Virus record (IMG/VR): IMGVR_UViG_3300049440_000156
Coordinates: 3,705 to 67,704 of that record
DNA length: 64,000 bases
Direction: 5' to 3' (one strand)
Source of the DNA: a virus
This document shows, in pieces, positions 1 through 64,000 of this stretch. Position numbers and translations under genes: made by a program. Each line of letters begins with the position of its first letter. The first letter of the stretch is position 1. Below the pieces are notes generated by a model that saw nothing but the letters and a program-made list of their open reading frames with translations, did no database searches and had not been told where the DNA came from.

Positions 1-957
1 GCCGCCGACCTTGATGCGACCAGAGAGGACATCAGGAGTTGTCGCTACACCAGCGCGGACTTTTCCGCCGAACACAGAAGCGCCTGAGAACTTTCCTTCT
101 GGCGTTTCAACGCTTCCTGTTTTCAAGCCGGACGCTGTGCCTAGGAGGGATGGAAGAAAGAAAGAAGCAGTTCTTATTAACTCCTCATCTTCAGGCGATA
201 CGTGACTATGCACGGCAGAGCCAATGCCTTCGCTTGCCCCGACGCCAGCTCCATAACCAGCGATCACCGGCAGCGGGTTCAACATCGCCGACGCTGCGGC
301 AGCCGGTTCCATCAGTTGACCGGCACCCTGGAGGGTTTCGGCTGCGCCGAGCATCCGTTGCCGCCTTTGGCGTTCTTGCTCTTGCGGCGACATCGTACGC
401 ACCGGAGGACCCATCGGGTTATTCGGATCGACGTTATACGCCGGCTGATCATTCTCCTTGAATCGCGATAGGCCAGTGGCGACTGGTTCAACACCAGTCC
501 ATGCGTCAAATACAGGTATACGGTCAGCCTCAGGAACCAAAGGCCTCTGGCGAAACTCTCCGGTACGCGCATCGGCCTCGTAGGGAACGTCTAGTTGCGG
601 ATCGTGTGGCCGCCCCGCAGGCTCCGAAGGAGTAACACCGTTAACTCTGGTAGCTGCGCGCGTAGCTGCTGCTTCATCAGCCGGGCTTGGTGGCTGATTG
701 AAGGCTGCTTCCGCAAATGATGGGAACTGCGCGGCTGGTTTTGGAGCGTATGAAGGCGTAGGAAGAGATGGACGTGCGAGAGGAGGTGGGGCAGGCGCTG
801 AAGCTGATTGCTGATCTAGGTCGTCGAGAGGCGCACTGACGGCGGATGAAGAAGGAGAGGATTGCTGATCGAGATCGTCAAGAGGCGCACTGACGGCGGA
901 TGAAGAAGGAGAGGATTGCTGATCGAGATCGTCAAGAGGCACCGAATACGTGGACAT
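1..957 (-). CDS. N-terminal part of giant internal virion (ejection) protein; runs off window start, absent from ORF track
   Basis: ATG at 955-957 directly abuts the stop of 958..2673. Hand translation MSTYSVPLDDLDQQSSPSSSAVSAPLDDLDQ... is open to position 1. Probably the same gene as 58755..>64000 on a circular map. Confidence 0.8.
   Translation of the reverse strand, partial: MSTYSVPLDDLDQQSSPSSSAVSAPLDDLDQQSSPSSSAVSAPLDDLDQQSASAPAPPPLARPSLPTPSYAPKPAAQFPSFAEAAFNQPPSPADEAAATRAATRVNGVTPSEPAGRPHDPQLDVPYEADARTGEFRQRPLVPEADRIPVFDAWTGVEPVATGLSRFKENDQPAYNVDPNNPMGPPVRTMSPQEQERQRRQRMLGAAETLQGAGQLMEPAAAASAMLNPLPVIAGYGAGVGASEGIGSAVHSHVSPEDEELIRTASFFLPSLLGTASGLKTGSVETPEGKFSGASVFGGKVRAGVATTPDVLSGRIKVGG
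806..940 (-). repeat. 54-bp tandem repeat (2.5 copies) encoding PLDDLDQQSSPSSSAVSA
   Basis: gattgctgatc recurs at 806, 860 and 914. Confidence 0.95.
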
Positions 958-2673
958 TTAGAATGCTGCACGGACTTTCCCGTCTTTGTCTTTAACGAAA
1001 CCTTTGATCGTTTGGCCGTTCACCTTGTCGCCCACGTTGTACACCCTGCCGCCCGGAGTCTTGTGTTGCTTGTCGGAGATGGGCGTGATTTGTGGTTGTG
1101 CAGATGGCTGGACTCCAATCGTCGGCCTGCCCTTTCCGTCTGTTCCTGTGACGGTAGCCGTGGCGGGAGAGCCATCGTTGTTATGGGCTTCTATTCCCTG
1201 CACTGGCTGGCCTGGACGAACTGGCGCAGCAGCATTCGGAATGGCAGCCAGCGGACGGCCTTGCGAATCAGTGCTGGCAGGTACGGCAATTCCAGTGTCG
1301 CTCTGGACGTCTGGAATACCGCCGCCCTCTGGCTCTTTTACGGAAACTGGCTTGCCGGATTTGACCTGTGAGGACCACTGCTGCTTGCGGTTCTCAAATT
1401 CCGTGGTGCGCTGGTTGTAACCATCTTCAATGGTCTTATATTCAGCGCGCAGGGCATCATCAACCTTGCCGCCACCAGCGTTTTTGAAAGCTTCGGTCTT
1501 GTCCTTCCGCACCTGGTCGCGCTGCTTCTGATACCACTGGTCGGAGTACTTGTCGATCGCTGCCTGGTCTTTGAAGGTCGCGGCTAGACCTTTGCCTGCA
1601 GCTCGGGTTTTCTCGATATCCAGCCGTTGCTGCTCCATCCCAAGACGCTTTTCTTCCATGGCCAGACGACGCGCGAGTGTCGGATCATCCGGCAACTTCC
1701 CATTGGCCAGATAGAGCTTACGGTCATCGCCTGCGAGTTGGAGCTTATCGGCGATCTTCGTTCTAGCGTTCAGTATCGCCGTTTCCTTGGCCTCTGGGGT
1801 TGTGGCGTCCTGAAGCTTCTTCTTTAAATCCTCCGTCGCCTCGTTATGCGCAGTACGCTCGTCCACGTTCTGTTGCTTCAGATCGCTGATGTCTTGGTTC
1901 TTTGCAACGTCGAACTGGTCTTTCCACACTCCACTTTTATCCTTGAACTCATCGCGCGCACGGTTATTCTCGTCCTCGAAGGATTTGATCTGCGCTGTGT
2001 CGGCAGCAGCTCCACGCTGACGTGCGGCTTCATCCTTAAAGTACTGACCACTGACAGCTCCAGCGCCGTAGTATCCAGGCGAACTCTTATCGCCAAAAGC
2101 ACCTTCGAGTGGACCAGATATAGCCCCTGGCAGCCCGCCACGAATAAAACCTCTCGCCGAATCAAGAAATGCGCGTCCAATCCGCGCGCCCATGCTGGGC
2201 TTATATTGCGGCAGCGTTTGTCCGGTTGTTGGATCAACTTTCGGCGTGACGGCGCTCTTCGCCCGCAGGTCGGATTGAGCTGCGGCATAGCCTGGTGACA
2301 TTGACGGCGCTTGCGGGGGCGCGCCAAGTTTTTCGAGGTTTGTTTGCGGTGCCTGTACTGTCTGCCCGGCTGCAGCGGCGAACTCTCCGAGATCCATCGC
2401 CGCTTTCGAGGTCGATTGCGGTGGCACTGCTGGCGGAGGCGCTGGTGTCCCCATAGGATCGCGGTAGGCATTGCCCATTGACGCAGGAGTAGAGTCGTCT
2501 ACGGGTTGCGGCGCCGTTGAACCGCCAGTGTCCCCACCAGACAAACTCGGATCAAGGTAGCGAGTTGACGGAGCTAGAGTTGGGTCTTCGTCGGCGTACG
2601 CTCTGCCCATGATGGGCTGTTCGTCGTCTTCGCGCTCGTCTTGTTCGTTGTCTACATCCGGCATGATAGGCAT
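958..2673 (-). CDS. Putative ejection / internal virion protein
   Basis: 571 aa with Pro/Ala-rich disordered ends, Gly-rich segment and coiled coil; lies between pilot-like gene and giant protein. Confidence 0.6.
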   Translation of the reverse strand: MPIMPDVDNEQDEREDDEQPIMGRAYADEDPTLAPSTRYLDPSLSGGDTGGSTAPQPVDDSTPASMGNAYRDPMGTPAPPPAVPPQSTSKAAMDLGEFAAAAGQTVQAPQTNLEKLGAPPQAPSMSPGYAAAQSDLRAKSAVTPKVDPTTGQTLPQYKPSMGARIGRAFLDSARGFIRGGLPGAISGPLEGAFGDKSSPGYYGAGAVSGQYFKDEAARQRGAAADTAQIKSFEDENNRARDEFKDKSGVWKDQFDVAKNQDISDLKQQNVDERTAHNEATEDLKKKLQDATTPEAKETAILNARTKIADKLQLAGDDRKLYLANGKLPDDPTLARRLAMEEKRLGMEQQRLDIEKTRAAGKGLAATFKDQAAIDKYSDQWYQKQRDQVRKDKTEAFKNAGGGKVDDALRAEYKTIEDGYNQRTTEFENRKQQWSSQVKSGKPVSVKEPEGGGIPDVQSDTGIAVPASTDSQGRPLAAIPNAAAPVRPGQPVQGIEAHNNDGSPATATVTGTDGKGRPTIGVQPSAQPQITPISDKQHKTPGGRVYNVGDKVNGQTIKGFVKDKDGKVRAAF

Positions 2674-17563: not shown

Positions 17564-19984
17564 TTATCCCGCCTGTTGCGGGCCTGCTGGTAACTGTTTC
17601 TGCGCTCCCGGAGGAGGTGGCGGCTGTGTTGCGCCCTGTAATTGTCCTGAGGCTTTGGCCATCATCTGCTGCTTCTGGAACTGCATTTCCAAGCCAAGCT
17701 TAATGAACGCCACTAAGTTGCCATGGAATGAATCGTTGTCCATCCATTTGTCGGGATGTTCGCGCGCCCAATCCGGCAGAATCTTTCCAAGCGAATCCAG
17801 ATCGTCCAGCCACATATCTGGCTGTACGCTCGGCACATCTACCTGCTGCATTGCCGGGCTGCCGTCTGGGTTTATCTTGCCCGGTACCGGCACATTCTCT
17901 TGTGTTGGCTCGCCCTTCAATAGCAGATCAATCAAGATCAGTGCGCGGCCTTCAGACAGTGATCCAGGAGCAATCAATCCCTTGACACCAAAGCTCGACA
18001 CGCAGGCATCAACGTTCTTCGGCTCAGAGAAGAGCATCTCTGCAATGGCTTTGTTGGTGTTGTTGAGAATCTTCTCCCAGAAAGCCTGTATCTGCTCAAC
18101 CGTCATCGGGAAGCCCTGGTCTTCCTCGGGCTCGACGTGAATTGAGCCTTTCATCTGGTCCGGATGAACGTACTGGTTTCTAAATTCTCCAGTCTTGTCC
18201 GTGACGGTGTTCCACCATTTGTCCGTCATGTTCCGGGCCGCGCAGCTTACACCCTGCTCGGCGGCTTCGGCATCCTGCTCCCTGATCTGGTTCCAGTGCA
18301 GGTTCAGTTTGCCTTTAGCCTGCGCTAATTGCTGTTGCTGCCCACTGGCCGTCTGAACGTTTTCTCCCGGATCGCTGCCAACAATCTGTGGCATCACGCC
18401 GGTAAGCAACTGCATCTGGCTTGGCAGGCTGCCCATGTATTCGAGCAGTTGTGGCTCGATCTCAAAGACAAACTGGTGAACCAGATCAGCTAAAGCCTTC
18501 TGTGGTCCTGTCTTTCTGAGCGCCACCGGATTAAATACTCCCGGCAACAATCCTTTCCGGTTTAGCTGCTTGGTGTCGATGTACTCAGCGTTAACAATCA
18601 CCAGGCCCGCAGCCATGCGCTCAAAGAAGTCATCAACCATGTACGTCAGGTTGTTGAACCTCTTTTGTACCGGGATCGCCGCTTTGCCGGCAGCAATTCC
18701 CGTCTGGCCAACTTCGTCGCACGTTGATGCGCGTGTCCAGCAATCTGAAATCGCCTGGTTGACCGGAGGCATCAGTACCAGGTCCCCGACGTGAGCAATG
18801 AAGCAGCCCTCTGGGTATTTCGCCTTTAAGCGCTCGGCTGCTTTCCGATCATCCAGATAGCTGAATGCCCACGGCTGAACCCAATCCCGCGAATACGTTG
18901 GATCCTGCAGGAGCGTTGCCATCGCGAACCCTGGCGACGTCTTGGTTGCTGCAATCTGCCGTGCTTGCCGCTGCTGCTGGTCTTCGGCGCCCTCGGCTCC
19001 CATGCCGTCTCTGAGCTGCTCGTACAGGTCCGGGAAGACATCACGGAGCCAACCCAAAGATACTTCCATCTGTAAGCCAATAATGGGCGACTCGTCCCGG
19101 CTCATCGCCTTGGGCTTAGAGATAATATGAAGCGGTCCGAAAATGCTTTTGACCACCATCCCATTCGGGATGTCGGTCTGCTCTTCGGCCACCGGGACTT
19201 CATCGGTGTAGCCCGGATAAACGTTTTGCGGCTCAAGCGGCTGTCCGCACTTCGGACATACCGGCTGCTCTTGCCCCTGGACCGCCTGAATCGGCGTTGC
19301 CGTGCCGCAGTTCATACAAACAAAGCGGTCTGGCACGACCTGCTGCTTCTTGATGGTCAGGACCGTCTGTTTTCTGGTCTTGAACCTGGTCGCGTCTACG
19401 ACGAAGCGGTTGTATTCCCAGTAATGTCCCGCCGTCCAGAAGTGGAACAACTTCGCCAGATGAAGCTTTCTCGCCTTGTTTTTCTTGGCGATGATCTCCA
19501 TGACCGTCGTCGCGGCCTTGGCTGTCTCGCGGTCTTCCGTTTCGTCAGCGTTCTCTGGCGACGTAGTGTTACGCGGAATGTCCGCCGATAGTACCGCCTG
19601 GTAGCCGAAGAACAACATCTGGTAAAAGTTAGTCGGCAAATCGGAGAGCGTCAGGTCTTCATCTTCTTTTCCGTCCGCATCTCCACTGAGGTAGTCAGTG
19701 AAGGCCTGGAAGGAACTGAACATGTCCGTCGTGCCGGCCCAGAAATCGAAGAAGTGATTGCCTTTTAAAAACTCAATCGCTTCCAGTGTCTCGGCGATGA
19801 TGGCCCGGTACTCGGTAGCCCACTGCTCTTTCTGGACTTTAATCATGTCCAGCAGGAGCTTGATATCCGCCTGGTCCTGCTCTGAGTTATCGTCGTTCGT
19901 CGTTGTCGCCGGCGCGTCCCGAGTTGGCTCCTCACTCGGTTGCTGCTGTGGCGGGTTAACCTCCGTTATGAGTTGGTCGGCCAT
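17564..19984 (-). CDS. Portal protein with zinc-ribbon insertion
   Basis: 806 aa; EDRETAKAAT, AIPVQKRFN, MQLLTGV...TASGQQQQLAQA, Q/P-rich tail; insertion CMNC...CPKC. Confidence 0.85.
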   Translation of the reverse strand: MADQLITEVNPPQQQPSEEPTRDAPATTTNDDNSEQDQADIKLLLDMIKVQKEQWATEYRAIIAETLEAIEFLKGNHFFDFWAGTTDMFSSFQAFTDYLSGDADGKEDEDLTLSDLPTNFYQMLFFGYQAVLSADIPRNTTSPENADETEDRETAKAATTVMEIIAKKNKARKLHLAKLFHFWTAGHYWEYNRFVVDATRFKTRKQTVLTIKKQQVVPDRFVCMNCGTATPIQAVQGQEQPVCPKCGQPLEPQNVYPGYTDEVPVAEEQTDIPNGMVVKSIFGPLHIISKPKAMSRDESPIIGLQMEVSLGWLRDVFPDLYEQLRDGMGAEGAEDQQQRQARQIAATKTSPGFAMATLLQDPTYSRDWVQPWAFSYLDDRKAAERLKAKYPEGCFIAHVGDLVLMPPVNQAISDCWTRASTCDEVGQTGIAAGKAAIPVQKRFNNLTYMVDDFFERMAAGLVIVNAEYIDTKQLNRKGLLPGVFNPVALRKTGPQKALADLVHQFVFEIEPQLLEYMGSLPSQMQLLTGVMPQIVGSDPGENVQTASGQQQQLAQAKGKLNLHWNQIREQDAEAAEQGVSCAARNMTDKWWNTVTDKTGEFRNQYVHPDQMKGSIHVEPEEDQGFPMTVEQIQAFWEKILNNTNKAIAEMLFSEPKNVDACVSSFGVKGLIAPGSLSEGRALILIDLLLKGEPTQENVPVPGKINPDGSPAMQQVDVPSVQPDMWLDDLDSLGKILPDWAREHPDKWMDNDSFHGNLVAFIKLGLEMQFQKQQMMAKASGQLQGATQPPPPPGAQKQLPAGPQQAG

Positions 19985-22694: not shown

Positions 22695-22756
22695 ACGCTC
22701 TCCCGAGACGCCTTCTTTTTGTAGAGGGAATGAACTGGCCGAAGTGAGGCCGGTCA

Positions 22757-24481
22757 TTAGCTGCCCGGAACAGGCGTGATTGTGATCTTCCTGACCGTGA
22801 AGGTAGTGAACGATGACGCGGTTGCAGTTAAGCGCACATCCAGAAAGTTCTGCGCTGTCAGGTCAATCGCGGAAGATGGCGCGGTTGTAGTATCAAGTTG
22901 TGGGCCAAAAGCAGGCGGGACAGCGTTACCTGCAGTCACCGAGGTTGAGAACCCGGTATCTGTGTTGCACTCAATAGTGCCCGTGGCTCCAATAGCTGAC
23001 GTACTGCAAATCATAGAGTACGTCCAGTTAGAAGCGCCGGCAGGATTCCAGGTGCCTGAGGCGGTGAACGGAACCGAATCGATCGTTTGCACGCCGGTAG
23101 CCTGGCGAGGGCCGAGAGTTACAACAAAGCTTCCAGCAACGGTTGCCGCTGCGGGAGTGCCTACACCTTCAAATTTAACGTGCCATGCCTTTTCAAGACC
23201 CTGATTGAAGAAGCCAGTTGGCAACGGCACTTCTGCTGCGGTCTGTACGGTCGTGACCGTGGTGATAGCTGAAAATGGACCGTAGACAGCCTGAAATCCA
23301 GGGCTTGAAGGAATCTCGGATACCATCGACAATCCTGTCGCCGTAGCCAAGCCAAGCGACACAGCACCTTGTAGAGGAATGCCGGCCGTGCCGGTGATGA
23401 TCGAAACAATCACGGAGTTGGACGTGAGCGCGCACGATATGGCCACAATGCTGGTCGTGCTGGTCGCGCACTGATTGCCCACGGTCGGCGCCGCGGTGTT
23501 TGGAGCGTAGAGAATTTCAGTAAGGGTAGCGCCGCCGTTGGCTGAAAGGTAGGTGCGATAGCCAACTGAGTTGGGACATCCAGCCGTACCGGGAGCGGTG
23601 ACTGTAATCGAGTTGGTCGAGCCCGCGCCGGTCGTAACCACCGCGTTTGCAGAGGTGTCCGTCGAGATAGCAGTCTCGCGCCCGATCGCGTCCATGCAGG
23701 TAATTGTGGCCCGGATCGCCTGCCCGGTGGCGATTGATCCTCCGGTCGTCGCGGTGTTGAGTGTTGCCGCAGCGCCACCCACCGTGGTCAATGCCGTAGG
23801 AGCCGCAGTCAGTGATAGTGAAGTGCCTTTAACTGAGTACCACTGGCTTAGTCCGTTTGAAATATCGTGGACGTAAATATTTGCCAGTACGTTCTTGGCG
23901 CCGGTAATCGTGGTATTAGGCACGCCAGGGGACGCGCCCTTACATCCCAGAGCAACAGATTCTTGTGTGTACTCGACGACGCCACCAGTTGCGCCTAGAT
24001 CGTTGATTGCTTCCTGGAGTCCGCACGTGCCTGAAGATAATCTGTAAGACACGTGCGAGTTGTTGTTGGCCAGGACCAGCGTGCAGACGCTCCCGGAGAT
24101 GCTGGAGCTGGTCAGGTTTACCGTCTCAGTGTTGGCCGCCGTCGCATCCGTGATGGTCACGCTAATGTTCGGCGTCGATTGCGTCGGCCCTGTCGCCACG
24201 GGAGCGGTGAACGGATTCACGTTGCCGCGGCCGCCAAAGCTCAAGGCGTTGGTGCAGACTCCAGCCGGAAACGTGAAATTAAGATTCCCGCCGGCAGTAG
24301 CGTCAATAACATAGTTGTAGGCCGAAGCGGTTCTGACGTTGTTCTGCGCCCATGGAGTAGCGCCAAACTGACCGTCAAATGCGTTGTTCTGGGCCAGCGC
24401 CGGGCTTGCCGTGCCGATGACCAGGCACGCGAGGGCCAGCAGTGTAAATGTGATCTTCGACACGGATGCGAATGCTTTCAT
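22757..24481 (-). CDS. Thr/Ala/Gly-rich fibre-like protein with Sec signal peptide
   Basis: MKAF...LLALACLVIGTASPALA|Q; GLQEAINDL..GGVV motif typical of tailspike necks; several Cys. Confidence 0.65.
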   Translation of the reverse strand: MKAFASVSKITFTLLALACLVIGTASPALAQNNAFDGQFGATPWAQNNVRTASAYNYVIDATAGGNLNFTFPAGVCTNALSFGGRGNVNPFTAPVATGPTQSTPNISVTITDATAANTETVNLTSSSISGSVCTLVLANNNSHVSYRLSSGTCGLQEAINDLGATGGVVEYTQESVALGCKGASPGVPNTTITGAKNVLANIYVHDISNGLSQWYSVKGTSLSLTAAPTALTTVGGAAATLNTATTGGSIATGQAIRATITCMDAIGRETAISTDTSANAVVTTGAGSTNSITVTAPGTAGCPNSVGYRTYLSANGGATLTEILYAPNTAAPTVGNQCATSTTSIVAISCALTSNSVIVSIITGTAGIPLQGAVSLGLATATGLSMVSEIPSSPGFQAVYGPFSAITTVTTVQTAAEVPLPTGFFNQGLEKAWHVKFEGVGTPAAATVAGSFVVTLGPRQATGVQTIDSVPFTASGTWNPAGASNWTYSMICSTSAIGATGTIECNTDTGFSTSVTAGNAVPPAFGPQLDTTTAPSSAIDLTAQNFLDVRLTATASSFTTFTVRKITITPVPGS

Positions 24482-24531
24482 GGTTGGAAGCTCCTGACGT
24501 CTGGAATTGAATTTGGGTGGAACTGAACTTG

Positions 24532-24789
24532 TTAGGTGTGCGCGTTATGCGCTTTGCCGTTAACCCGGCCTTTCAAATAGCCGATGTCTTCGGTGTGCTC
24601 GCCGATCTTTGACCACTGGTCTTTCTGTTCGGCCTCGATCTTCGATGTTCTCTCGGCTAGAGCGCCGATCGAGGTCTGGATGATGCCCTCTGTTTTACCG
24701 GCACGGCGTGCGGTGATAACTGCTGTGCCTACGACGCTGATAAACCCTGTAATGACCGCTCCGCCGATACCAGCTAAGGTTGCATCCAA
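24532..24789 (-). CDS. Small membrane protein (holin-like)
   Basis: N-terminal TM helix plus coiled coil ending IGYLKGR. Confidence 0.5.
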   Translation of the reverse strand: MDATLAGIGGAVITGFISVVGTAVITARRAGKTEGIIQTSIGALAERTSKIEAEQKDQWSKIGEHTEDIGYLKGRVNGKAHNAHT

Positions 24790-24822
24790 GGGGATTGACT
24801 CCTGGTGTAAAATGGCTGGCCT

Positions 24823-25263
24823 ATGAAAGCCCTGTTCTACCGCTCGCTTTTTGTTTTAACTTCCTGCCTTGTCTACCGCCTACAAGGGCGTCTCGGACTT
24901 GGCTACTGGATACCAGGATCATGGGAGGGTGCAGTAACTTTTGTCGGTATGATCGCATTTTCAGTATCCGTAACCTGCGGGATATTCTTGACGGCTAAAC
25001 CTACCATTGCTTTCGTTGGTCATCACTGGAGACTTGCGCTGAGCTCTGTCGCAATCGTTATCGTTGGGACGGCCTTGATGTATTTTTGGCCTAAGCATGT
25101 GGTTAAGCCACAGATAGAAGTTATTCAGCCTTCGCCATCGCCGATTCCAGAAACATCAGTCTCCGTACCACTCGATGAACTGGATCAAGTTCCTCCAAAA
25201 AAGAAAGATCAAAACGCAATAAAACCACCGCCGGGATATGTGCTCGACTCGAAAACCAAATGA
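24823..25263 (+). CDS. Moron-like 3-TM membrane protein, candidate superinfection exclusion
   Basis: Opposite strand to the late operon, AT-richer, three hydrophobic segments, tail SVPLDELDQ...PPPGYVLD. Confidence 0.7.
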   Translation: MKALFYRSLFVLTSCLVYRLQGRLGLGYWIPGSWEGAVTFVGMIAFSVSVTCGIFLTAKPTIAFVGHHWRLALSSVAIVIVGTALMYFWPKHVVKPQIEVIQPSPSPIPETSVSVPLDELDQVPPKKKDQNAIKPPPGYVLDSKTK

Positions 25264-25355
25264 AACGCTCACTTCCCTACGAAAACAGCATTTACAATTG
25301 GCACTGGAAGGCCCTTAAAGCCCTCTGGGAGTTCATGAAATCACTGAGAAAATAA
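25260..25355 (+). CDS. 31-aa peptide MKRSLPYENSIYNWHWKALKALWEFMKSLRK
   Basis: ATGA overlap with the preceding gene; amphipathic; hand translated. Confidence 0.4.
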   Translation: MKRSLPYENSIYNWHWKALKALWEFMKSLRK

Positions 25356-25374
25356 CAACAAGAAAGAACGCAAG

Positions 25375-25521
25375 ATGCTCGACCTGTTAGCCGCTGGATT
25401 GCTCTTCAAGATCGCCGCTTCTGCCGCCTGCCTCGTAGTGTTTTCCCTCATCCTTGTTTCAATCCTTGGAGCAGCAGCCAAACACTCCGACAAGAAAGCA
25501 TGGCCCGAGCGTAAGGACTAA
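25375..25521 (+). CDS. 48-aa single-TM protein
   Basis: MLDLLAAGLLFKIAASAACLVVFSLILVSILGAAAK...; hand translated. Confidence 0.45.
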   Translation: MLDLLAAGLLFKIAASAACLVVFSLILVSILGAAAKHSDKKAWPERKD

Positions 25522-28115
25522 CGCGCAAAGCAGCTCACCTGGAGCACATCGTTCGCGCTGAAGTTCGCTCCAACCGCCACGTCATTAAAATTGGTGATGG
25601 TTATGCTGCTCGCTCCGGTAGCGGTCTGCTTCTGTAAAAACACCGTAGTTGAGTTCGTCGATATGTCCGTCGCGTAGCAATTCCAGCCATTTGAAGCGGT
25701 CGGCATAGTGACGGTGCAGGCTGTTGTCGGCGCTGTCCCTACGTTGACCACAAAGGAAGCCGTTCCATTGCTCGTTCCAATACTTGCCGCCGATCCACCG
25801 CATCCCGCGCCTGCAATCGTTGGCTGGGTGCCTGAAAGGAGTAAGGCTTGCGTCATGTTCAGTGACGGCAGTTTGACGTTGCCTAAAAAGATCGAATTCC
25901 CGCTCACTGGGGCAATACAGAAAAGATCGGCTCCTCCTGTTGTGTCTCGCCACACCACAGATTCATTCACTGTGCAGAGCCCACTTGCAGTAGCGCGGAT
26001 CGTAAAGTCGGTGCGCTGAGAAGTATTCACCAGGGAGAACCCGACGTTATTGTTCCCGGTTTGCGTGATACGTAAATCCGGGCCGCCGCTGCCGCTCTGA
26101 ATCTCAAATAGAGCGTTTGGCGTAAAGCTCGCCACTCCCACTCCGGTCTTGCCGGTCCCTGCAGTTACGATATGGAGGAAGTTCGCGGACTTTGGCGCAA
26201 TGGTGAAATCCATAGCGATGTTCGATTGCCAGGTGCCGTCATCATTCCCGGCAGCGAATAGATTTGTGACTGTGCCACCATAGACATAGCTGGCCGCGCC
26301 GCCATCGGTGTTGTTTCCGCTGATCTTCGTGTTATCGCCTGAGTTTGCCTGAATATCTGACCCAGCGTTTGGATTACAGCCGGTAACGGTATTGCCAGCA
26401 ATGTTGACGAATTGATTTACTGGCGGATCGGCTGGTCCTGCAGTATTGTGCCAACTGAAGATGCCATCCTGGGCTGTGCCGCCGTGGCAGATGACGGTGT
26501 TCCCGGAGATGTCCACATTAGAAGCGGAGCGGGCTGAGATGCCTACCGCTCCATTAAAAGTTACCGGCACGTCAATCGTATTATGGGAGACGGTGATTCT
26601 TTGCGAACCTACGCCTACCTCAATGGATGTGTCTTGCACTCCATTGATAGTATTGCCGGAAAAATCACATCCAACAATCCCATACCCAGTCGAGGCCACT
26701 TCACCCAACGAGAATATGCCGTCCGCCTGGCCGAGTGCCACGTTAATATGGTTGCCCTGAGCCTTACAGTTTGTCAGCGAAGAATCGACACCACCTTGTG
26801 AAGCCGGAGTATTACCAAACAAGATAGCACTGCCACCTTGAGGATTTACACCTGTGCCACCAATGTTTAAAAATGTATTGTTTCTGACGACGACATCATC
26901 TGCACCAACACCCGAATATCGGAATCCGTGATTGGTGGTGTTCTGAATTCTGGAATTCTGCAAAAGAAAGTGCGACCCAGCATTGTCTACAACGCCAGAA
27001 CCTCCGGTAGGATTACCGCTTACGTTCCCGTCGATCACCACACCATCAATCGTGACGTTGCTTCCACTGGTCGAAACAAAATTACCATTGATGGTGGAGG
27101 CTGCCGTCATCTGACAGGCCAGAGGCTCAGGACAAGCGACCGTACAGTTAGCCGGAATCGTCAAAGCTGGAACGCCTGAGGAGACTCCCAACGGTAGCCA
27201 GAAAAAGCCCGGCGTAGTTCCATTACATGCGAGATTGATGTTTGCCTGCGTTAGAACAGGTCCACTGATAGAGCCAACATTGAACAGCCCAAAGCCATTC
27301 AAACTGAGCGGCCCGTTGATGCTCTGTAGGCCATTGAACGCCGGTGTCGTCAGGATCGCCTGCGGATAAACTACGCCTGAACCCTGGCACACATTCGATT
27401 GCGGTGTACCGAGTGAGAGATTAACAGTCCCTCCCGATCCACCAGCCAGATAGAAGTACTGTGGATATCCAGGGATTGGTACACCAGTCGAGCTGGCGAG
27501 GCCTACGTCGTAGCAGACAAAACTCGGTTGCAGTTCGTCGTTGAAGCGCAGCTTACAGGCTGTCGTGTTTGACGCCGGTAGCGCCGCGCCGGACACCAAT
27601 ACTACGCTCTGGCTGAAGTTGGCCCACGATCCCGGAGTACCCGTGACTAAACCTTGCTGTGTTTCTGTTCCAGTTGAGGACGAAATATAAACTTTATAAC
27701 CACTTGCGCTGGCGGGCTGTTTGACCGGCGCAGTCACAATCAAAGTCCCTTGCGAAGCCAGTACGATCGAGCCTTCTGGGCCAGCAAAACTCTCGCCGGT
27801 TCCGTCAAAGTAGGTCAACCGCACGAAATAGGTTCCAGCAGCCAATGTCCCTGAAGCCAGATTGGTCGAGAGTACCGGCACAACCAGCGGGTTGGGCTCG
27901 CCTACTACATTTCCGTTCTGATCCGTAAAGCAGCTGACTGAAGAGGCTGCGATTGAAGCCGATCCAGAAACTAAAGCAGCCTGAGTCAATGTGAAGGTAA
28001 AAGTCCCATTGGCAACTGGCCCGAGTTGAGGGTTCTGAACCTGGCCCGTGACAGTGCCCGCATTAACGCTGGCTGCCATCAACAACATCAGGATGAGGAC
28101 AAGAAGTTTACGCAT
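25518..28115 (-). CDS. Parallel beta-helix tailspike-like protein with Sec signal peptide
   Basis: MRKLLVLILMLLMAASVNA|G; NVTIDGVVIDGN and repeated VxIxxNxI rungs. Confidence 0.8.
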   Translation of the reverse strand: MRKLLVLILMLLMAASVNAGTVTGQVQNPQLGPVANGTFTFTLTQAALVSGSASIAASSVSCFTDQNGNVVGEPNPLVVPVLSTNLASGTLAAGTYFVRLTYFDGTGESFAGPEGSIVLASQGTLIVTAPVKQPASASGYKVYISSSTGTETQQGLVTGTPGSWANFSQSVVLVSGAALPASNTTACKLRFNDELQPSFVCYDVGLASSTGVPIPGYPQYFYLAGGSGGTVNLSLGTPQSNVCQGSGVVYPQAILTTPAFNGLQSINGPLSLNGFGLFNVGSISGPVLTQANINLACNGTTPGFFWLPLGVSSGVPALTIPANCTVACPEPLACQMTAASTINGNFVSTSGSNVTIDGVVIDGNVSGNPTGGSGVVDNAGSHFLLQNSRIQNTTNHGFRYSGVGADDVVVRNNTFLNIGGTGVNPQGGSAILFGNTPASQGGVDSSLTNCKAQGNHINVALGQADGIFSLGEVASTGYGIVGCDFSGNTINGVQDTSIEVGVGSQRITVSHNTIDVPVTFNGAVGISARSASNVDISGNTVICHGGTAQDGIFSWHNTAGPADPPVNQFVNIAGNTVTGCNPNAGSDIQANSGDNTKISGNNTDGGAASYVYGGTVTNLFAAGNDDGTWQSNIAMDFTIAPKSANFLHIVTAGTGKTGVGVASFTPNALFEIQSGSGGPDLRITQTGNNNVGFSLVNTSQRTDFTIRATASGLCTVNESVVWRDTTGGADLFCIAPVSGNSIFLGNVKLPSLNMTQALLLSGTQPTIAGAGCGGSAASIGTSNGTASFVVNVGTAPTTACTVTMPTASNGWNCYATDISTNSTTVFLQKQTATGASSITITNFNDVAVGANFSANDVLQVSCFAR

Positions 28116-28611
28116 GAACTTCCGGCCTCCAGGTCTGATTCAGTAGCAATCGGCCAATTGAGGATTGTGCCAAGCCGAATCGTCGTGCGAGTTGCGGCTG
28201 AGATACACCGCCAGCGCTATAAATGCCACGGATTTCCTGGGCGGTCTCAAATGTAATCCGATTAGAGCCAAGCCGCTTCTTCCGGCACATGTCAATCGTG
28301 TTGTCGCGAGCCGTACCAATGAATAAATGCTCAGGGTTAACGCAGGCGCGGTTGTCGCATGAATGAAGGACACGCTTCCCGGCAGGAATATCACCACGAA
28401 ACAGCAGCCATGCCAGCCGATGAGATCGTACCTTTACCTTGAACTGGGATGTGGTAATCGTCATCTGCCCATAGCCGGTAGATGGATCGATTGAGGCCGT
28501 CCAACGCCAACACCCATCAGTCTTAACAACCTTTGCAAAAAAGCGAGGCTCAAGCGTCTCTCGTTGCAGCGCGACAATTCCAGACGTCAGGAATCTCAAG
28601 AATGATTTCAT
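28108..28611 (-). CDS. HNH homing endonuclease with C-terminal HTH
   Basis: GCWRWT, SHRLAW, VLHSCDNRACVNPEHL, QPQLARRFGLAQSSI. Confidence 0.9.
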   Translation of the reverse strand: MKSFLRFLTSGIVALQRETLEPRFFAKVVKTDGCWRWTASIDPSTGYGQMTITTSQFKVKVRSHRLAWLLFRGDIPAGKRVLHSCDNRACVNPEHLFIGTARDNTIDMCRKKRLGSNRITFETAQEIRGIYSAGGVSQPQLARRFGLAQSSIGRLLLNQTWRPEVHA

Positions 28612-32151: not shown

Positions 32152-32363
32152 TCGTCTCTTTCGCTCATTCCAGACGTCACGAAGCCACTCTTCCAGCCAT
32201 TCGTCTTGTTTGTCGAACGGCCAGTCGATGAATCCATCGGGTAACCCACTTCCGCTTCCGGCTCCGGATCGACTACCGTTGCCGCGCGCGAGTATTCCCG
32301 GCACAAGCTGGATAGCAGGTCGTCGTCTGAGTCGAGAGGTGTTCTGCATTCGAGGCATCGCAT
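32148..32363 (-). CDS. Small Cys-containing protein
   Basis: MRCLEC start; ATGA overlap with endolysin. Confidence 0.45.
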   Translation of the reverse strand: MRCLECRTPLDSDDDLLSSLCREYSRAATVVDPEPEAEVGYPMDSSTGRSTNKTNGWKSGFVTSGMSERDE

Positions 32364-58754: not shown

Positions 58755-61700
58755 TCAGTGTTTCTTCTGTTCCTTTTTCTCGTTGATGCCGATCATCTTC
58801 AACAAACTGTCCATCGCCTTTTCGGCATTCGAGTCTTTGCTTTGCCTCATCCAGGGTTGCAGCGGGATGGGTACGGCGCCCTCGCCATGGCTCTTCAGTT
58901 TGTCGGCCAGGGATTCATGTTTCTTGTGGAAGTGCGGATCTTCGTTTTTGAAGACTGCTGACACTGGCGGACTCACACGGTTCTGCAGGAACGTCTTCGG
59001 GTCGGTGGCCGCGTCCATGACGTCGCCCTGGACGGTGCGTAGATGGTATTCCTTGCCGTCATGGACGACGCTGAAGGGCTTGTCCCAATGCGGGTCTTTG
59101 TCCGACATCTCGTTAATGATGCGTGCTGCTGTGTAGAGCACTGCCGCTCCGAGCATGAGAGCTACGAGTTGCTCCCGGCCGTATTTGGTGCCGGCTTGCG
59201 CCACAAACCGCGCGCGGGCTTCCGTGAAGTCTGGAGCCATCAGGAACAGCCGCAACGTGTCCTGTAGCGTCTTGTTGCGCCCCAGCAGGCGGTAATTGAG
59301 GCCTCCGAATGCCGCGTTGGCCTGGCTGGCCGTCAGGAATTGTAGTTGGTCTTCGCTTAGTTCGGGATAGCGCTTCCGGTTGCGTTCTAGTGCCACTTTG
59401 GCCATCTGCATCTTCAACCGCGGCATGTAATCGCGGAAGAGATAATCGACGTAAGTCCTGTAAAGCGGCCCGATGCCTGGTGTTTTCGTTACCAGTCCAC
59501 CAGAAGATAGTCCCTCACCGAAAGCTTCCATTGCGTCGTAGTGCGCCACCATCAGGCCATGATCGACCAATCCTGATTGCACAGGATCGTTCAGATCCAG
59601 CTTCGGCATGTGTCTGGGCCAGACTTTGTGTTCCAGTGCGTGGATACCCAACGTCGTTTGATGAAAGACCGAGAACGATAGGACAAAGCTCTTGATCTCT
59701 GCTGCTGTGTCGAGTGCAAACGCTCCAGGCCTGACGGTCTTGTCGCCGATGGTGATCTGGTAGCGACGCAGAGCCGACGTGCTCAGGTTGTTCTTGAGCT
59801 TCTGGTGAATCTCTGGATGCACCAGGGCATCACCCTGCACAAAAACATTCTTGCCGTCCACGTTGCCGGCCCACTTCCAGCCACGCAGAGCAGGATGGTC
59901 AATCGATTTGTAGTCGGCAAATTCCTCTCCGGCTTTGATGTTCGGCTTAATCACATACGCTGGCTGCTCTTCGCCTATCTCTTTGGCGCTGGCCCAGCTC
60001 GTCGCAACCAGCGGTCGCCCGTCAGAGGCTTCTCCGCCCATAAGGCTCTCGATGTACGCTCGCGCTGCCAGAGCTTCTCGTAGGGACCGCTCGTGTACAG
60101 ACGTCAGGAACCCAACGTCCTTGTCCTTCGGCGTGAAGCCCAACTGCTCCGCGTCGAAGTAGGTCGGCAAGCTACGTTTCTTGCTGAAGCTGGGCTTGGT
60201 CACTAGCGTGTTGAAATTCATCTCCGCGCGGATTCGGGCTGCAAACTTTGGTTTGTCGGCATAGACGTGCTGGATATAGTTCTCTACGCCCGCCTCTAAA
60301 ATCCCAGCCTTGATCGACTCCTGCAGCGTGGCATCATGCAGGTTCATGATGTTCTGGGCTATCGTTTTTTCCGCGTCCGTCAGCTTAAGCGCTGCTTCGT
60401 AGCCGGGCTTAAATTCTTTGTCTGATTTGCCGGCCCGTTCGCGTAGCAGGTCTTCGTCGCCGCTGGCCTCGATCCAGTTCGAGATTGCCTCGCGTGTCAG
60501 CTTCTCCGGCACTGCAGCCTTAATGGCCTTGGTAAAGCGGTAGAGGTCGAGAGCGCTCCGCTGGTCGGCTCCTGACCATTCCCCGGTTGCTTTCTCGTAG
60601 TCACCGGCCTTTGGTGGACGCTTCACGGCATCAGCCAGAGCAGCGAAGCCACCCTTCAGTCTGCCCAGCAGCGACGTTACTTCGTCCTTCGCCCCGGCGG
60701 CTTTCTCCCCAAGGTTAGAGCCGATCCGGATTCGGGACGAAAGGGAGGCGCCAGGCGAGCTCTTGGCAATGGAGTCTGTGAGTTGTTGCATCTCGCCCAG
60801 TCCGGTTTCGTTGTCACTGTATGCCGATTTGCTGCCAGGAACGATGCGTGTAGGATTCTTGATGTATGGAGCAGTAGCTACCTGCTTCTTGATCGGGAAG
60901 CGGTCCAGAAATTGCTTGACCGCCTCCTTGTCCTCTGGCAGATAGAAAAAGCCACCTGACACAGCGTTGTACTTGGCTCCATGTCTCAACACGTCCTGGC
61001 CGCGGTTGGTGTTTGACAGCTTCGCCCCGTCGATCACGACATAACCCTTCCTTTCTCCGCCCTTGCCCATGTAGAGAGTCCAGCCGTTGTCGAGCGGAAC
61101 CTTGTCGCCGGCAACAACATCCTGCAGTGCTGTCTCTGGCGTGTGTTCATAGGCAATGCCTTTGCCGAAAGCCTTGGCGATCGGTTCAATCTGTCCAGGA
61201 CGCAAACGCAATCCCGATATCTGTTCGCCATTCGACCCCGTAAAACTCGTGTACTCGCGGCGCTTGCGGATCACGGTCATACCTTCGGCGGTCTTCTCCT
61301 CGCCACTCTCCAGGTGCGACTGCAGGGCATTCATGTGCTCTGTGACCATGCCAGAGAGAATGCCGGCCCGGTGACCTGATGAATCCTTGATTTCGTAGAG
61401 GTCAAGGTCTGGCCCGAGCTGGTGAACGCGTAATATCTCGCCCTTGGTTTTGCCTGTCTTCTGCGCTTCGCGCGTGGCTACAGCGTCACCGGAATACGTC
61501 TCTTCGCGCTGCTTCCAGAAGTGGTCCCAAATCTGGTTTCCTTCCTCGACGGGAATCAATTGGAGCTGCAGCAGGAAATCGCGGACTCCCACGCCCTCGA
61601 TGGCACTCTTCGGCCTGGCTACGCCGTCCTTGTCGTAGTTCATGAACTGCTTCCCACGGAACTGCTCACGTAGGCCGAGCGGCAGTGTGCGCCACATATC

Positions 61701-64000
61701 ACGGACTACCTGATTATCGATATCGCCACCCAGCTCAAAATGCTCAAGTGCTCCGGTTCCGGTTGATTCAGCCGCACCCTTTGACACCGCGCCCAGCGTC
61801 TTCATGCGGTTAGCAATGGTCGAGATGAATTTCTTTTCAGCAGCGGAGCCCAGTGTTAAGGCTGTGATCTTCGGCGCAGATGCCTGCCCAGAGCGGTCCA
61901 CGCGACCCAGTTCCTGCTTGAAGTTTGTTGCACTCCATTCGTAGTCGGCCAAAATCAAATGCCTGCGACCCTTTGCCCCGCCTGGTGTCTCGGTAACGTG
62001 ATGTAGAGATATCCCTGTTTTACCAGCGCCGCTGATAACGGCGATTTTCCGGATACCCTGCTGGAAGTCCTCCATCATCTGCCGGCGCACCTTGGGCGAT
62101 TCATTGCCGGTGATGACTGACACCTTGTCCTTGCCAAATTCCTTCTGGATCATTGCGATCGGGTCGGGTGAAGGCGGGAACTCCTGTTCGGCTCGTTCAA
62201 TCAGATCGTTCTTAACCGCTACGGCTTCCGGGATTTCACCTAGGTCCGTGACTTCGCCGGTTTCTTTATCCACCAGAACCTTGTTGACGTTGATCTGGTT
62301 GAGCGCTGCGGCCATATAACCTTCGCCGACCTTGGTCTCATTGACGTTAATGACGGAGATTACGGGCTGCTCGCCGCGGGCCAGCGATTCCTTGGCCTCT
62401 TTCATGGCTCTGGTGAGGCGCACGTCGAATAGGCGGCGCTTGGCGGCCGACTGCAGGAATGCAGTGATCCCGAAGCCCCTCCGCATGGCCTCGTTCTCAT
62501 TGGCAAAGGCGTTGAATGCCTTTTCTACCTCGCGCATGTAATTGACGGACTGCCGGTAGGAATCTGATTCTGCTTGAGTGAGTGGGGCTTCCTTTTCGGC
62601 AAACTCTACGCCGCTACGCCAGAGATCACGCGCACCGTATTTGCCTTTCATCTTCAGTTCGCGCATGATCTGCTCCATCTCGGCGGTCGAGACGGTCACG
62701 TGGAACGAATCGCCTTTACTCTGCCCCCACTTCTTGTTCTTCTGGTCCTTTTCTGCCTGCTTCAGCTCTCTTTCCCAGTGGGCGATCATTGCTCGATCGC
62801 CAGTCAGTTTGGCGGCCGCCAGCGACTGCGCTACGCGCGTCACTCTGCCAGTCTTCGATACATCCGCCGAATCGCTGCCAACCTGCTGCGCCAGGTCCTG
62901 CGTTTGGCCGGGCACTGTGCCGCGTTTTTTCTGTGTCTCTTCGGTGCCGTGTCCAGTCTTTCGCGCCACCCAGTCACTGAACCCGTCTAATGGCCATTCC
63001 TTCAGTCCGTAGAGGTATTCCAGATCATCGAGCGTGGTACCTGGCGTTGCCGTGAAATACGCGATCGGCACTTTCCGCTGCAGCCAATCAGCATGCAACA
63101 CCTTCCAAGTCTGGCCTACTCCAGCATCGTCGTTCTTGTAGGTGTGGACTTCATCTCCCAGCACGCCATCAATGCCAAGGTCCTGAATGGCGCGACGGTA
63201 GGGCGTCAGGTTGAACGATTCAACGACGTAGACGGTGTTGTCGGTCTTGGGTACTGGATTGTAGGGCTTGGTGTTTTGCGCGCGCTCTGCGGCCTCTTTA
63301 TAGTCGCGAAGATATATGTACTTGAACGGCAGATTGTCAGTGCCGGCTACGACCTTCATCTCGCTTTCAAGGTCGCGCAGGTTGACTTCGCCTTTGCTGG
63401 TAATCAGGATGCGCTTCGCTTTGCCCTTTTCCAGCCAGTCAATAGCAGAAGCAGCGATCTCGCGCGATTTTCCCAGTCCAACATCGTCCGCCACCATCAA
63501 TGCGTGGCCGCGTTCATTGGCCTGGCCAACGGCTGCAACGGTGTCCACCTGCTCGTCAGAAATGACCTTACGCTTGTGGGCATCGATCACGCCCTTGCTT
63601 GGCTGGTAGTTGATTTCCGGGGCAGGAGCGCCGGCGAGAGAGCGGGTCTCTACAATTTGTCTGGGGTGGGGATTTCCTGAGACTCCGCTGCGCAGTACAT
63701 AAGGAGTAAAGACAGGGCTATGGTTTGCTTCGTCGAACTCTCTGGCCCGTTCTCTGCTAACGTTTTCGGGGCGTAATGCGTGAGTGCCTTGTCGAACCAG
63801 TCGAGGCGCTGTTGCGGGCTGGGACGCACCATCTGCTCCTGGGCTGTCCACCGATTCAGAAACATCTCCCGCGGGAACCACGTTGGCACCCACCCCGGCG
63901 CGCTCGGATCGAACAGACTCAGGGCTTGCTCCTGGTTCGCGCAGTTCGGGTAGTCCTCGCCCGCCGTCAGCTCCGGCAGCGGCACCTTGGGATCGAGCAG
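58755..64000 (-). CDS. Giant polyvalent internal virion protein with Strawberry-notch-type SF2 helicase (DarB-like); 5' end beyond window
   Basis: ADDVGLGKSR, DEVH, TATPG, GKTGISLH, QELGRVDRSGQ; hand check shows the frame open to 64000. Confidence 0.85.
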   Translation of the reverse strand, partial: ARSQGAAAGADGGRGLPELREPGASPESVRSERAGVGANVVPAGDVSESVDSPGADGASQPATAPRLVRQGTHALRPENVSRERAREFDEANHSPVFTPYVLRSGVSGNPHPRQIVETRSLAGAPAPEINYQPSKGVIDAHKRKVISDEQVDTVAAVGQANERGHALMVADDVGLGKSREIAASAIDWLEKGKAKRILITSKGEVNLRDLESEMKVVAGTDNLPFKYIYLRDYKEAAERAQNTKPYNPVPKTDNTVYVVESFNLTPYRRAIQDLGIDGVLGDEVHTYKNDDAGVGQTWKVLHADWLQRKVPIAYFTATPGTTLDDLEYLYGLKEWPLDGFSDWVARKTGHGTEETQKKRGTVPGQTQDLAQQVGSDSADVSKTGRVTRVAQSLAAAKLTGDRAMIAHWERELKQAEKDQKNKKWGQSKGDSFHVTVSTAEMEQIMRELKMKGKYGARDLWRSGVEFAEKEAPLTQAESDSYRQSVNYMREVEKAFNAFANENEAMRRGFGITAFLQSAAKRRLFDVRLTRAMKEAKESLARGEQPVISVINVNETKVGEGYMAAALNQINVNKVLVDKETGEVTDLGEIPEAVAVKNDLIERAEQEFPPSPDPIAMIQKEFGKDKVSVITGNESPKVRRQMMEDFQQGIRKIAVISGAGKTGISLHHVTETPGGAKGRRHLILADYEWSATNFKQELGRVDRSGQASAPKITALTLGSAAEKKFISTIANRMKTLGAVSKGAAESTGTGALEHFELGGDIDNQVVRDMWRTLPLGLREQFRGKQFMNYDKDGVARPKSAIEGVGVRDFLLQLQLIPVEEGNQIWDHFWKQREETYSGDAVATREAQKTGKTKGEILRVHQLGPDLDLYEIKDSSGHRAGILSGMVTEHMNALQSHLESGEEKTAEGMTVIRKRREYTSFTGSNGEQISGLRLRPGQIEPIAKAFGKGIAYEHTPETALQDVVAGDKVPLDNGWTLYMGKGGERKGYVVIDGAKLSNTNRGQDVLRHGAKYNAVSGGFFYLPEDKEAVKQFLDRFPIKKQVATAPYIKNPTRIVPGSKSAYSDNETGLGEMQQLTDSIAKSSPGASLSSRIRIGSNLGEKAAGAKDEVTSLLGRLKGGFAALADAVKRPPKAGDYEKATGEWSGADQRSALDLYRFTKAIKAAVPEKLTREAISNWIEASGDEDLLRERAGKSDKEFKPGYEAALKLTDAEKTIAQNIMNLHDATLQESIKAGILEAGVENYIQHVYADKPKFAARIRAEMNFNTLVTKPSFSKKRSLPTYFDAEQLGFTPKDKDVGFLTSVHERSLREALAARAYIESLMGGEASDGRPLVATSWASAKEIGEEQPAYVIKPNIKAGEEFADYKSIDHPALRGWKWAGNVDGKNVFVQGDALVHPEIHQKLKNNLSTSALRRYQITIGDKTVRPGAFALDTAAEIKSFVLSFSVFHQTTLGIHALEHKVWPRHMPKLDLNDPVQSGLVDHGLMVAHYDAMEAFGEGLSSGGLVTKTPGIGPLYRTYVDYLFRDYMPRLKMQMAKVALERNRKRYPELSEDQLQFLTASQANAAFGGLNYRLLGRNKTLQDTLRLFLMAPDFTEARARFVAQAGTKYGREQLVALMLGAAVLYTAARIINEMSDKDPHWDKPFSVVHDGKEYHLRTVQGDVMDAATDPKTFLQNRVSPPVSAVFKNEDPHFHKKHESLADKLKSHGEGAVPIPLQPWMRQSKDSNAEKAMDSLLKMIGINEKKEQKKH

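Follow-up and report, generated by a model that had tools for sequence, protein, structure and literature searches.

We analysed a 64,000-nucleotide stretch (hereafter the window) of the IMG/VR virus record IMGVR_UViG_3300049440_000156, and in particular an open reading frame (ORF) of 146 amino acids (aa) at 24823..25263 (+), which we call the membrane ORF. It encodes a hydrophobic anchor and a Pro-rich tail with two short motifs, or tags, one of which is repeated in a giant protein encoded by the same phage. The window corresponds to G000:C1:3705-67704, that is, to nearly all of the 67,704-base-pair (bp) record; coordinates below are those of the window unless they carry a prefix. The record has a 127-bp direct terminal repeat and therefore represents a complete, circularly permuted phage genome, referred to here as G000. 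Its minus strand holds nearly all of the genes in the window, and the membrane ORF lies on the strand opposite to all of the neighbouring late genes.

The two strongest hydrophobic segments of the membrane ORF span aa 36-57 (24928..24993 (+); Kyte-Doolittle 19-residue mean up to 2.13) and aa 70-90 (25030..25092 (+); up to 2.01), and a third, weaker segment lies near the N-terminus, judged by hydropathy only. A first-pass annotation of the sequence had described a protein with three transmembrane segments; the 146-aa ORF and its hydrophobic segments are there, and the label of three segments is uncertain. The start codon is ambiguous: the gene call on the record begins at M43 and gives a product of 104 aa. 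The tail comprises 56 Pro-rich residues and carries SVPLDELDQ at aa 114-122 (25162..25188 (+)), which is the phage's own tag type (type A), and PPPGYVLDS at aa 135-143 (25225..25251 (+)), which is of the P-P-G-F type (type B) found in the giants of the related phages G001 and G002 and in other members of the giant-protein family. Counting of positive charges on either side of the membrane left the orientation of the tail ambiguous.

The membrane ORF sits between two fibre-like genes that are common to all five of the related genomes introduced below, and those relatives hold no homologue of it. Its GC content is 47.6%, as against 55.3% for the window, and the GC content of its third codon positions is 0.45, as against 0.55-0.75 in seven phage genes. 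By its antisense insertion, its absence in relatives and its base composition the ORF is moron-like, in agreement with the first-pass annotation. We found no Pfam or PHROG family for its product and no homologue in viral contigs; among 29 candidates from a collection of 5.8 billion proteins, only its own 104-aa gene call matched. Contigs of four other sequencing runs that cover 24000-26000 are identical within the ORF, and hence offered no variation for a test of selection.

The giant gene wraps around the end of the record and encodes 3259 aa in full. Its first 319 aa, with three tandem type A tags and a conserved N-domain, are encoded at 1..957 (-), and its C-terminal 1747 aa, with an Sbn/SNF2-type helicase (PF13872 and PF13871) and the C-terminal region, at 58755..64000 (-). 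The middle part, which holds tag copies 4 and 5, a 2H phosphoesterase domain (PF13563/PF02834; aa 774-879) and an N6-methylase domain (PF02384/PF07669; aa 1339-1467), lies outside the window at G000:C1:1-3704. By eye, we also recognized a GGDEF-like stretch. The gene follows nozzle-like and core-like genes at the end of the structural module, and by its domain content the product qualifies as a polyvalent protein of the DarB-like kind described by Iyer et al. (2017), encoded beside virion genes. Its place in the genome and its likeness to DarB lead us to infer that the giant is packaged and ejected with the virion. As a separate observation, the 2H phosphoesterase domain has a weak match, below the cut-off (E=2.9e-4), to the family of Acb1, a protein that counters the cyclic-oligonucleotide-based antiphage signalling system (CBASS); such a match would suit an injected counter-defence module.

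The N-terminus of the giant starts with MSTYSVPLDDLDQ, and its first ~100 residues are of low complexity with short motifs repeated. The first-pass annotation had pointed to PLDDLDQ, present three times in this region, and to its likeness with the tail of the membrane ORF, and two further copies came to light in the full protein: the pattern S-[VA]-P-L-D-[DE]-L-D-[QK] occurs five times, from aa 5, 23, 41, 922 and 1160. Copies 1 to 3 (aa 5-13, 23-31 and 41-49) are encoded at 919..945, 865..891 and 811..837 (all on the minus strand), and copies 4 and 5 (PLDELD at aa 924 and 1162) lie at domain linkers in the part outside the window. Comparing the copy in the membrane ORF with that in the giant, we observed that the third codon positions differ in eight of nine codons, with seven identical residues recoded and one D/E change, as had been noted at the outset. 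Likewise, the two internal copies of the giant (aa 922 and aa 1160) share eight of nine residues and differ in seven codons. Because the six copies differ from each other by synonymous changes, the motif is held by selection at the protein level in six places.

We then asked how often such a motif occurs elsewhere. Translated in six frames, G000 matched a loose pattern, P[LI][DE][DE][LI][DE], only at the five copies of the giant and in the membrane ORF, and the five related genomes did not match it at all. On a scoring matrix derived from the five copies in the giant, the copy in the membrane ORF scored 20.2, a value reached by only one of 656,913 non-giant windows of the six genomes, namely itself. 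The match between the tail and the giant is thus real and far beyond chance. For the second tag, a matrix from 41 P-x-G-F windows (taken from ten giants with at least two windows each) ranked PPPGYVLDS first among the 104,246 six-frame windows of G000 and above every window of G003, G004 and G005. With a matrix from G001 and G002, its score was reached by three of the 656,913 non-giant windows; going by their scores, these are most likely the G000 tail itself and two tagged small ORFs of G001 and G002 (see below). This bears out a likeness to N-terminal motifs of other phages that the first-pass annotation had suggested, in that PPPGYVLDS matches the N-terminal tags of the giants of relatives. 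The runner-up to PPPGYVLDS in G000 is a stretch of the giant around aa 733, immediately ahead of the 2H domain, and this stretch is partly the conserved start of that domain. Both tag matches fall within 33 residues of the tail (aa 114-146), and each ranks first or nearly so among more than 100,000 windows.

To place the tags of G000 among those of other giants, we assembled 51 proteins: 45 hits (E<=0.001) of a profile of the N-domain, the region behind the tags (aa ~99-318), among 1.84 billion representative sequences, and six giants derived from genomes. Most of the profile hits are 1,600-4,500 aa long. We inspected 28 of the family proteins in full and 16 short ones in the alignment. The set includes fragments and close relatives, so that the counts are not independent, and a few of the internal hits look chance-like by eye. 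Two or three N-terminal copies of a 7-mer, 15-20 residues apart and at least 6/7 identical, were present in 26 of the 51 proteins, a result reached by at most three of 300 shuffles; at an identity of at least 5/7, a pair was present in 33. A putative short signal thus stands at the N-terminus of a presumed virion-carried protein in 26 to 33 of the 51 cases. Further copies beyond residue 100 occurred in 20 of the 51 (shuffles give at most 0.3 each).

The tag itself varies from protein to protein. We found PDLVSEFE, P-P-G-F-x-[LP]-[DE], and DIFD-, VLGEVDL- and YEVVGSE-like types, all of them acidic and hydrophobic. The N-domain of G003 is 47% identical to that of G000, yet G003 uses a different tag type. 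Internal copies mostly precede a module, for example the 2H domain in P0010 and P0033, and in G000, P0002 and P0007 a tag of the protein's own type stands in the linker that precedes the GGDEF-like module. Seven linkers were located by pattern; six of these belong to proteins with an N-terminal tag pair, and three of the six carry the own tag, one a foreign tag and two none, numbers too few for a rate. Internal tags may be remnants of the fusion of once separate modules, each with a tag at its N-terminus. In P0005, one tag type stands in tandem at the N-terminus and the PDLV kind occurs twice at an internal linker; this protein looks like a natural chimera, which speaks for exchange of modules among giants.

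Next, we compared G000 with five related virus records taken whole (G001 to G005), four of which are complete and one of which (G002) is about half a genome. A sixth, G006, which was brought in by P0008, lacks the N-domain and was left out. Profile searches of genome contigs (A1, A4) and for P0012 brought no further genome of the family, and metagenome contigs yielded one contig of 1.4 kilobases (kb). For each genome, a matrix built from the tags of its own giant was run over all six frames. The top non-giant hit was a membrane ORF in G000 (score 20.2; next best 12.0) and again in G004 (14.4; next best 10.3). In G001 and G002, it was a small ORF upstream of the giant (22.0, next best 14.5, and 23.8, next best 15.5, respectively); G003 offered no credible ORF (best score 15.3, in an open frame of 21 codons) and G005 no outlier.

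The membrane ORF of G004 encodes 138 aa (G004:61276-61692, which is L030:4276-4692), and like that of G000 it runs antisense between homologues of the two fibre-like genes. Hydropathy gave three hydrophobic segments, and the last 21 residues contain PPVVFEERDIQ, a tag type that the G004 giant uses at aa 4, 21, 589 and 1167. Across the six genomes, the pattern P..F.[DE].[DE]I matched the four copies of the G004 giant and the tail of the G004 membrane ORF only. The tail copy agrees with the giant copies at 4-7 of 11 residues, the giant copies agree among themselves at 3-6 of 11, and the codons differ. When tails and tag types were crossed, the G004 tail scored high for its own type only, with a score reached by one of 638,289 background windows (itself), and the G000 tail scored high for type A and the P-P-G-F type; all other combinations of tail and type were at background. 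The first-pass annotation had asked whether the tail motif changes together with the motif of the cognate giant across related phages, and G004 supplies one further case in which it does (n=2): a second mimic that tracks a different tag.

We detected no significant similarity between the membrane ORFs of G000 and G004 (best BLASTP E=0.027, over 11 helix residues). Among 116 candidates from the collection of 5.8 billion proteins, the G004 ORF matched itself only, and it belongs to no Pfam family. Its GC content (0.54 versus 0.567) differs less from that of the rest of its phage than is the case for the G000 ORF. The positive-inside count, with seven Lys and Arg residues on the predicted cytoplasmic side versus four, favours a periplasmic tail for G004. 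The antisense cassette of G004 also includes a 379-aa protein like class-I S-adenosylmethionine methyltransferases (PF13489; L030:4577-5716 (+)), which overlaps the end of the tagged membrane ORF. At the syntenic site, G003 (L023:13011-13241 (-)) and G005 (G005:4511-4789 (-)) have short antisense membrane ORFs that are untagged. That of G003 has 8 of 11 helix residues in common with the G000 ORF (pair E=0.001) and no tail, and may be a remnant or a short relative.

A tyrosine integrase (PF00589, E=2e-12) is encoded in G000 at 53912..55381 (-), so we call the phage temperate, in keeping with the lysogen-borne gene proposed by the first-pass annotation. An integrase of this family is present in both phages with a mimic, G000 and G004. 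G001, which is complete, has neither integrase nor mimic; G003 and G005 have an integrase but no mimic.

The tagged upstream ORFs of G001 and G002 encode soluble proteins of 53 and 59 aa immediately upstream of the giant, each with the tag first and a small conserved domain after it. No tagged small upstream ORF was seen in G000, G003, G004 or G005. The domain, of ~35 residues and helical, is a free tagged mini-protein in G001 and G002 (L002:9526-9687 and L003:9400-9579) and in G003 and G005 it makes up the C-terminal end of the protein encoded upstream (545 and 542 aa; G003:36511-38148 and G005:25826-27454). In G001 and G002, the tag is thus common to several putative cargo proteins of one phage, and the tagged soluble ORFs fit a signal shared by such proteins. 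Separately, by eye only, the G001 giant (L002:9701-20803; a frame of 5566 aa, or 5564 aa from Met) has an intein-like insert of ~350 residues at the DE-H box of its helicase, with a Cys start and a His-Asn-Cys end.

In G000, the stop of a gene for a 571-aa protein (958..2673 (-)) adjoins the start of the giant gene. The C-terminal domain of this protein varies with the tag type of the phage: one form is found in G000 and L019, and others in G001 and G002, in G003 and G005, and in G004. The genomes behind this pattern are few and related, and the 571-aa type of protein is only a lead as the tag receptor. Co-folding of its aa 440-571 with the first 62 residues of the giant gave a score of 0.01, which is no answer and evidence neither way. 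We also considered a BCS1-like AAA ATPase as a universal reader of the tags and ruled it out, since G003 and G005, whose genomes are complete, do not encode it. The ATPase (BCS1_N and AAA; 8238-9575 (-)) lies inside the structural module and is the top-conserved protein between G000 and G001 or G002 (72-78% identity), although in both of the latter its gene instead adjoins the fibre gene.

The structural module, which is syntenic in the five related records, comprises genes for a protein of portal size (806 aa; 17564-19984), a scaffold-like protein (524 aa; 14584-16158), a candidate coat protein (433 aa; 13224-14525; with an SU10_MCP-like lead in a protein atlas) and a GroES-like protein; the BCS1-like ATPase and a weak match to the SU10 adaptor (7542-8237); and a nozzle-like protein (895 aa; 4247-6934) and three smaller proteins, followed by the giant gene. 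The GroES-like co-chaperonin gene (12187-12648 (-)) adjoins the coat candidate on its downstream, low-coordinate side and is kept in G001, G002 and G004. In the early or replication region, a gene at 45972-46370 (-) encodes a protein with a phosphopantetheine-attachment (acyl-carrier-like) domain, which is unusual for a phage.

Around the membrane ORF, the antisense cassette continues with a 31-aa ORF (25260..25355 (+)), whose start overlaps the membrane ORF stop (ATGA), and closes with a 48-aa ORF (25375..25521 (+)) that has one hydrophobic helix and no match in Pfam or PHROG. Divergent from the membrane ORF, with its start codon 33 bp from M1, lies the gene of a protein of 85 aa that has a single helix and a region resembling a coiled coil (24532..24789 (-)); its match to XhlA (E=0.11) is far below the cut-off. 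The flanking fibre-like protein at 22757..24481 (-), for which no family matched, was named by position, size and conservation pattern. The fibre- or spike-like protein on the other flank (25518..28115 (-); 865 aa) keeps its N-terminal ~277 aa in all relatives, the remainder being variable, and directly upstream of its gene, with a 4-base overlap, is an HNH endonuclease gene (PF13392; 28108-28611 (-)). The build of the membrane ORF product, with its charged C-terminus, would fit a holin; we rejected this identity on the grounds that the endolysin (GH108 and PG_binding_3; 31609-32358), on the strand opposite to the membrane ORF, is encoded ~6 kb away.

All 23 runs in which the window is represented sampled soil or rhizosphere DNA, and no RNA run was listed for 22700-28200. 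The giant gene of G004 (2485 aa) and its 138-aa membrane ORF are also present on a 76-kb contig, L037, that was binned with Candidatus Angelobacter (Acidobacteriota). The soil and rhizosphere setting and the binning with Acidobacteriota, the latter as to phylum, are only leads to the host of the phage family.

The reading that we favour, and to which we would give about an even chance, is that the membrane ORFs of G000 and G004 are anchored mimics of the tags and most likely serve as exclusion decoys. The tags would be phage-type-specific addresses that mark the effector modules of giant proteins for loading into the virion and/or for ejection; standing at the N-terminus of a protein or module, each would be read by a receptor that differs with the phage type, and would be kept by selection. 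The G000 product would be an inner-membrane anchor that displays, on a Pro-rich tail, one tag of its own phage and one of relatives. In cells that carry the phage, the tethered tags would then compete with the giant of an incoming or replicating phage for the tag receptor, and the competition would block delivery of the giant or its loading into the virion, excluding phages of the own and the second tag type. Anchored tag copies on the inner membrane would most simply act as a competitor for that receptor, and the pairing of an own tag with a relatives' tag in the G000 tail is easier to reconcile with exclusion than with a part in assembly of the phage itself. Receptor binding by the tags, expression of the ORF and exclusion as the result are inferences on which this reading depends. 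A periplasmic tail would point to a block of entry and a cytoplasmic tail to interference with loading; G004 favours the periplasm, and G000 is ambiguous. A wider picture, which we put forward more tentatively and hold to be possible rather than probable, is that a widespread family of soil phages tags each effector module of its giant injected proteins, that polyvalent proteins arise by fusion of tagged modules, that temperate members display type-specific decoys on the inner membrane against rivals (a bispecific one in G000), and that the resulting arms race drives a rapid diversification of tags.

Several observations weigh against the exclusion decoy. Only two of the six genomes have a tagged membrane ORF, and the temperate phages G003 and G005 are among those that do not. 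Given no detectable homology between them, the two mimics are paired on position and build (n=2), and both are orphans, so that conservation cannot speak for their coding. In G000, the start is uncertain (M1 or M43), and M1 lies no more than 33 bp from the divergent ORF. A scan for promoters of the sigma-70 type, which may not be that of the host, gave none at the membrane ORF and one weak terminator-like site inside it. The similar stretch of the giant near aa 733 means that the second tag may not be purely foreign, and the mixture in P0005 means that internal copies need not match the N-terminal type. Moreover, the N-terminal signals of T4 and P1 cited below act in packaging, in the cytoplasm, and the tail of the G004 ORF is predicted to be periplasmic. 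The first-pass annotation had proposed a decoy that jams the DNA-ejection conduit; the tag match and the co-variation support the decoy, and jamming of the conduit is less secure, in view of the packaging precedents.

Each tail matches the tag type of its own phage and the G000 ORF lies among late structural genes, which would also suit a tether for the phage's own use. In the lytic cycle, such a tether would draw the tag receptor to the inner membrane, the receptor being a virion component such as the 571-aa protein, the portal, the adaptor or the scaffold; it would help to organise assembly or the complex for exit or entry, and would exclude no one. Initiation of proheads in T4 is linked to the membrane, and if the giant stretch near aa 733 is counted as a likeness of the second tag, both tags of the G000 tail could be the phage's own. 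We consider a tether of this kind unlikely: the ORF is on the opposite strand to the late genes and of atypical GC content, four of the six genomes have the same structural module and no such ORF, and in both phages the ORF is an orphan, which would be unusual for an assembly factor. A coincidental likeness in a non-coding or meaningless frame appears very improbable. The lack of homologues, of listed RNA runs and of a promoter match would suit such a frame, but two independent tag matches share one stretch of 33 residues, G004 repeats the arrangement with another tag, gene callers predict both ORFs, and the 728-bp gap that holds the G000 ORF has no minus-strand ORF of comparable length.

Two further explanations concern what the tags do. 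They stand at module borders and at the N-terminus and all end in acidic residues, and they might be sites at which a maturation protease splits the polyvalent protein, the membrane ORF being a further substrate or a competitive regulator, for example by setting free a peptide from its tail. Prohead proteases of the T4 type cut after Glu. The site of the P1 prohead protease, E120/S121, is likewise cut after Glu (PMC9024508), and Iyer et al. (2017) propose that polyvalent proteins are processed by peptidase domains (PMC5512222). However, no protease family turned up among those structural-module ORFs that were searched against Pfam, PHROGs or NCBIfam, tandem sites 15-20 aa apart at the N-terminus would free only tiny peptides, and the periplasmic tail favoured for G004 would not meet a capsid protease; we regard cleavage sites as improbable. 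Alternatively, the tags could bind a host factor in the manner of a colicin box, and the membrane ORF could recruit or sequester that factor for a benefit to the lysogen unrelated to exclusion. Colicins offer an analogy, as does TonB: the N-terminal domains of colicins are disordered and bind host factors through short boxes; the low-complexity N-terminus of the giant with its repeated short motifs is reminiscent of these, and the Pro-rich tail resembles, by eye, linkers that span the periplasm. A conserved host factor would not predict that the tags of close relatives differ as sharply as they do between G000 and G003, and we would give this explanation little chance.

If the tags act as we propose, they would form a readable code that addresses very large effector proteins to the virion or to the ejection path, and that can be read from sequence in uncultured phages. 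The code would explain polyvalent proteins as products of the fusion of tagged modules, and would imply phage-phage exclusion by peptide mimicry in which the specificity of a decoy is predictable from its sequence. The tags may act as portable packaging signals, as those of T4 and P1 do, and tag peptides used as bait for the receptor could reveal what holds and orders the ejection proteins in short-tailed phages. As far as we searched the literature, this tag system was previously undescribed.

Among known systems, P22 SieA belongs with HK97 gp15 and TP-J34 Ltp to the exclusion proteins that prophages place in the inner membrane and that act on the conduit for DNA delivery. According to the portion of the SieA report available to us, SieA measures 162-164 aa, is predicted to have three helices and bears a conserved motif close to its C-terminus; it blocks DNA injection, phages escape it by mutations in ejection proteins, and its specificity is tied to the ejection proteins of related phages (PMC10883804). 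Copying of a motif of an ejection protein is not described for SieA in that portion (PMC10883804) and is present in the G000 tail. SieA and the ORFs of G000 and G004 are alike in their small size, their C-terminal motif, their residence in a temperate phage and their orientation off the direction of late transcription, and by hydropathy only, less clearly for G000, the ORFs may also match SieA in having about three helices; they share no sequence similarity, and the ORFs fall into no known family (Pfam and PHROG for G000, Pfam for G004). In another setting, SaPI1 CpmB copies the capsid-binding peptide of the 80-alpha scaffold in order to compete for its site, and the cargo-loading peptides of encapsulins bind HK97-fold shells. 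As in our proposal, a rival copies a short terminal peptide, whereas those mimics are soluble, act in assembly and have no membrane anchor, and the proteins are unrelated.

As signals, the tags are closest to the capsid targeting sequence of the T4 internal proteins and to P1 DarB, whose first 30 residues suffice to send a reporter into the capsid (PMC9024508). All of these are short N-terminal signals on proteins that travel, or would travel, in the virion, and the methylase-helicase pair of the giant has its archetype in P1 DarB; in the family described here, the tags are also tandem, internal at module borders and divergent between relatives. In the sections available to us, no N-terminal consensus shared by the P1 Dar proteins was found (PMC9024508), and no membrane-anchored copy of such a signal is described for P1 or T4 (PMC9024508, PMC5512222). 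The G000 giant matches the polyvalent proteins of Iyer et al. (2017): it is a multi-domain effector whose gene neighbours those of the virion, and it combines a 2H phosphoesterase with an N6-methylase and an Sbn/SNF2-type helicase; the main text of that study, as far as it was available, makes no mention of tandem, short-motif, linker, low-complexity or disordered tags (PMC5512222). In phage N4, which belongs to another family and for which the available part of the report gives no repeats, internal copies or mimic, ~16 N-terminal residues of gp52 lie in 12 copies in the lumen of the head-to-tail adaptor of full virions and are gone from empty ones (PMC13434306). N4 gp52 thus illustrates a place at which an ejected protein can dock by its N-terminal tag and, by this parallel, one N-terminal peptide can serve loading and exit at once.

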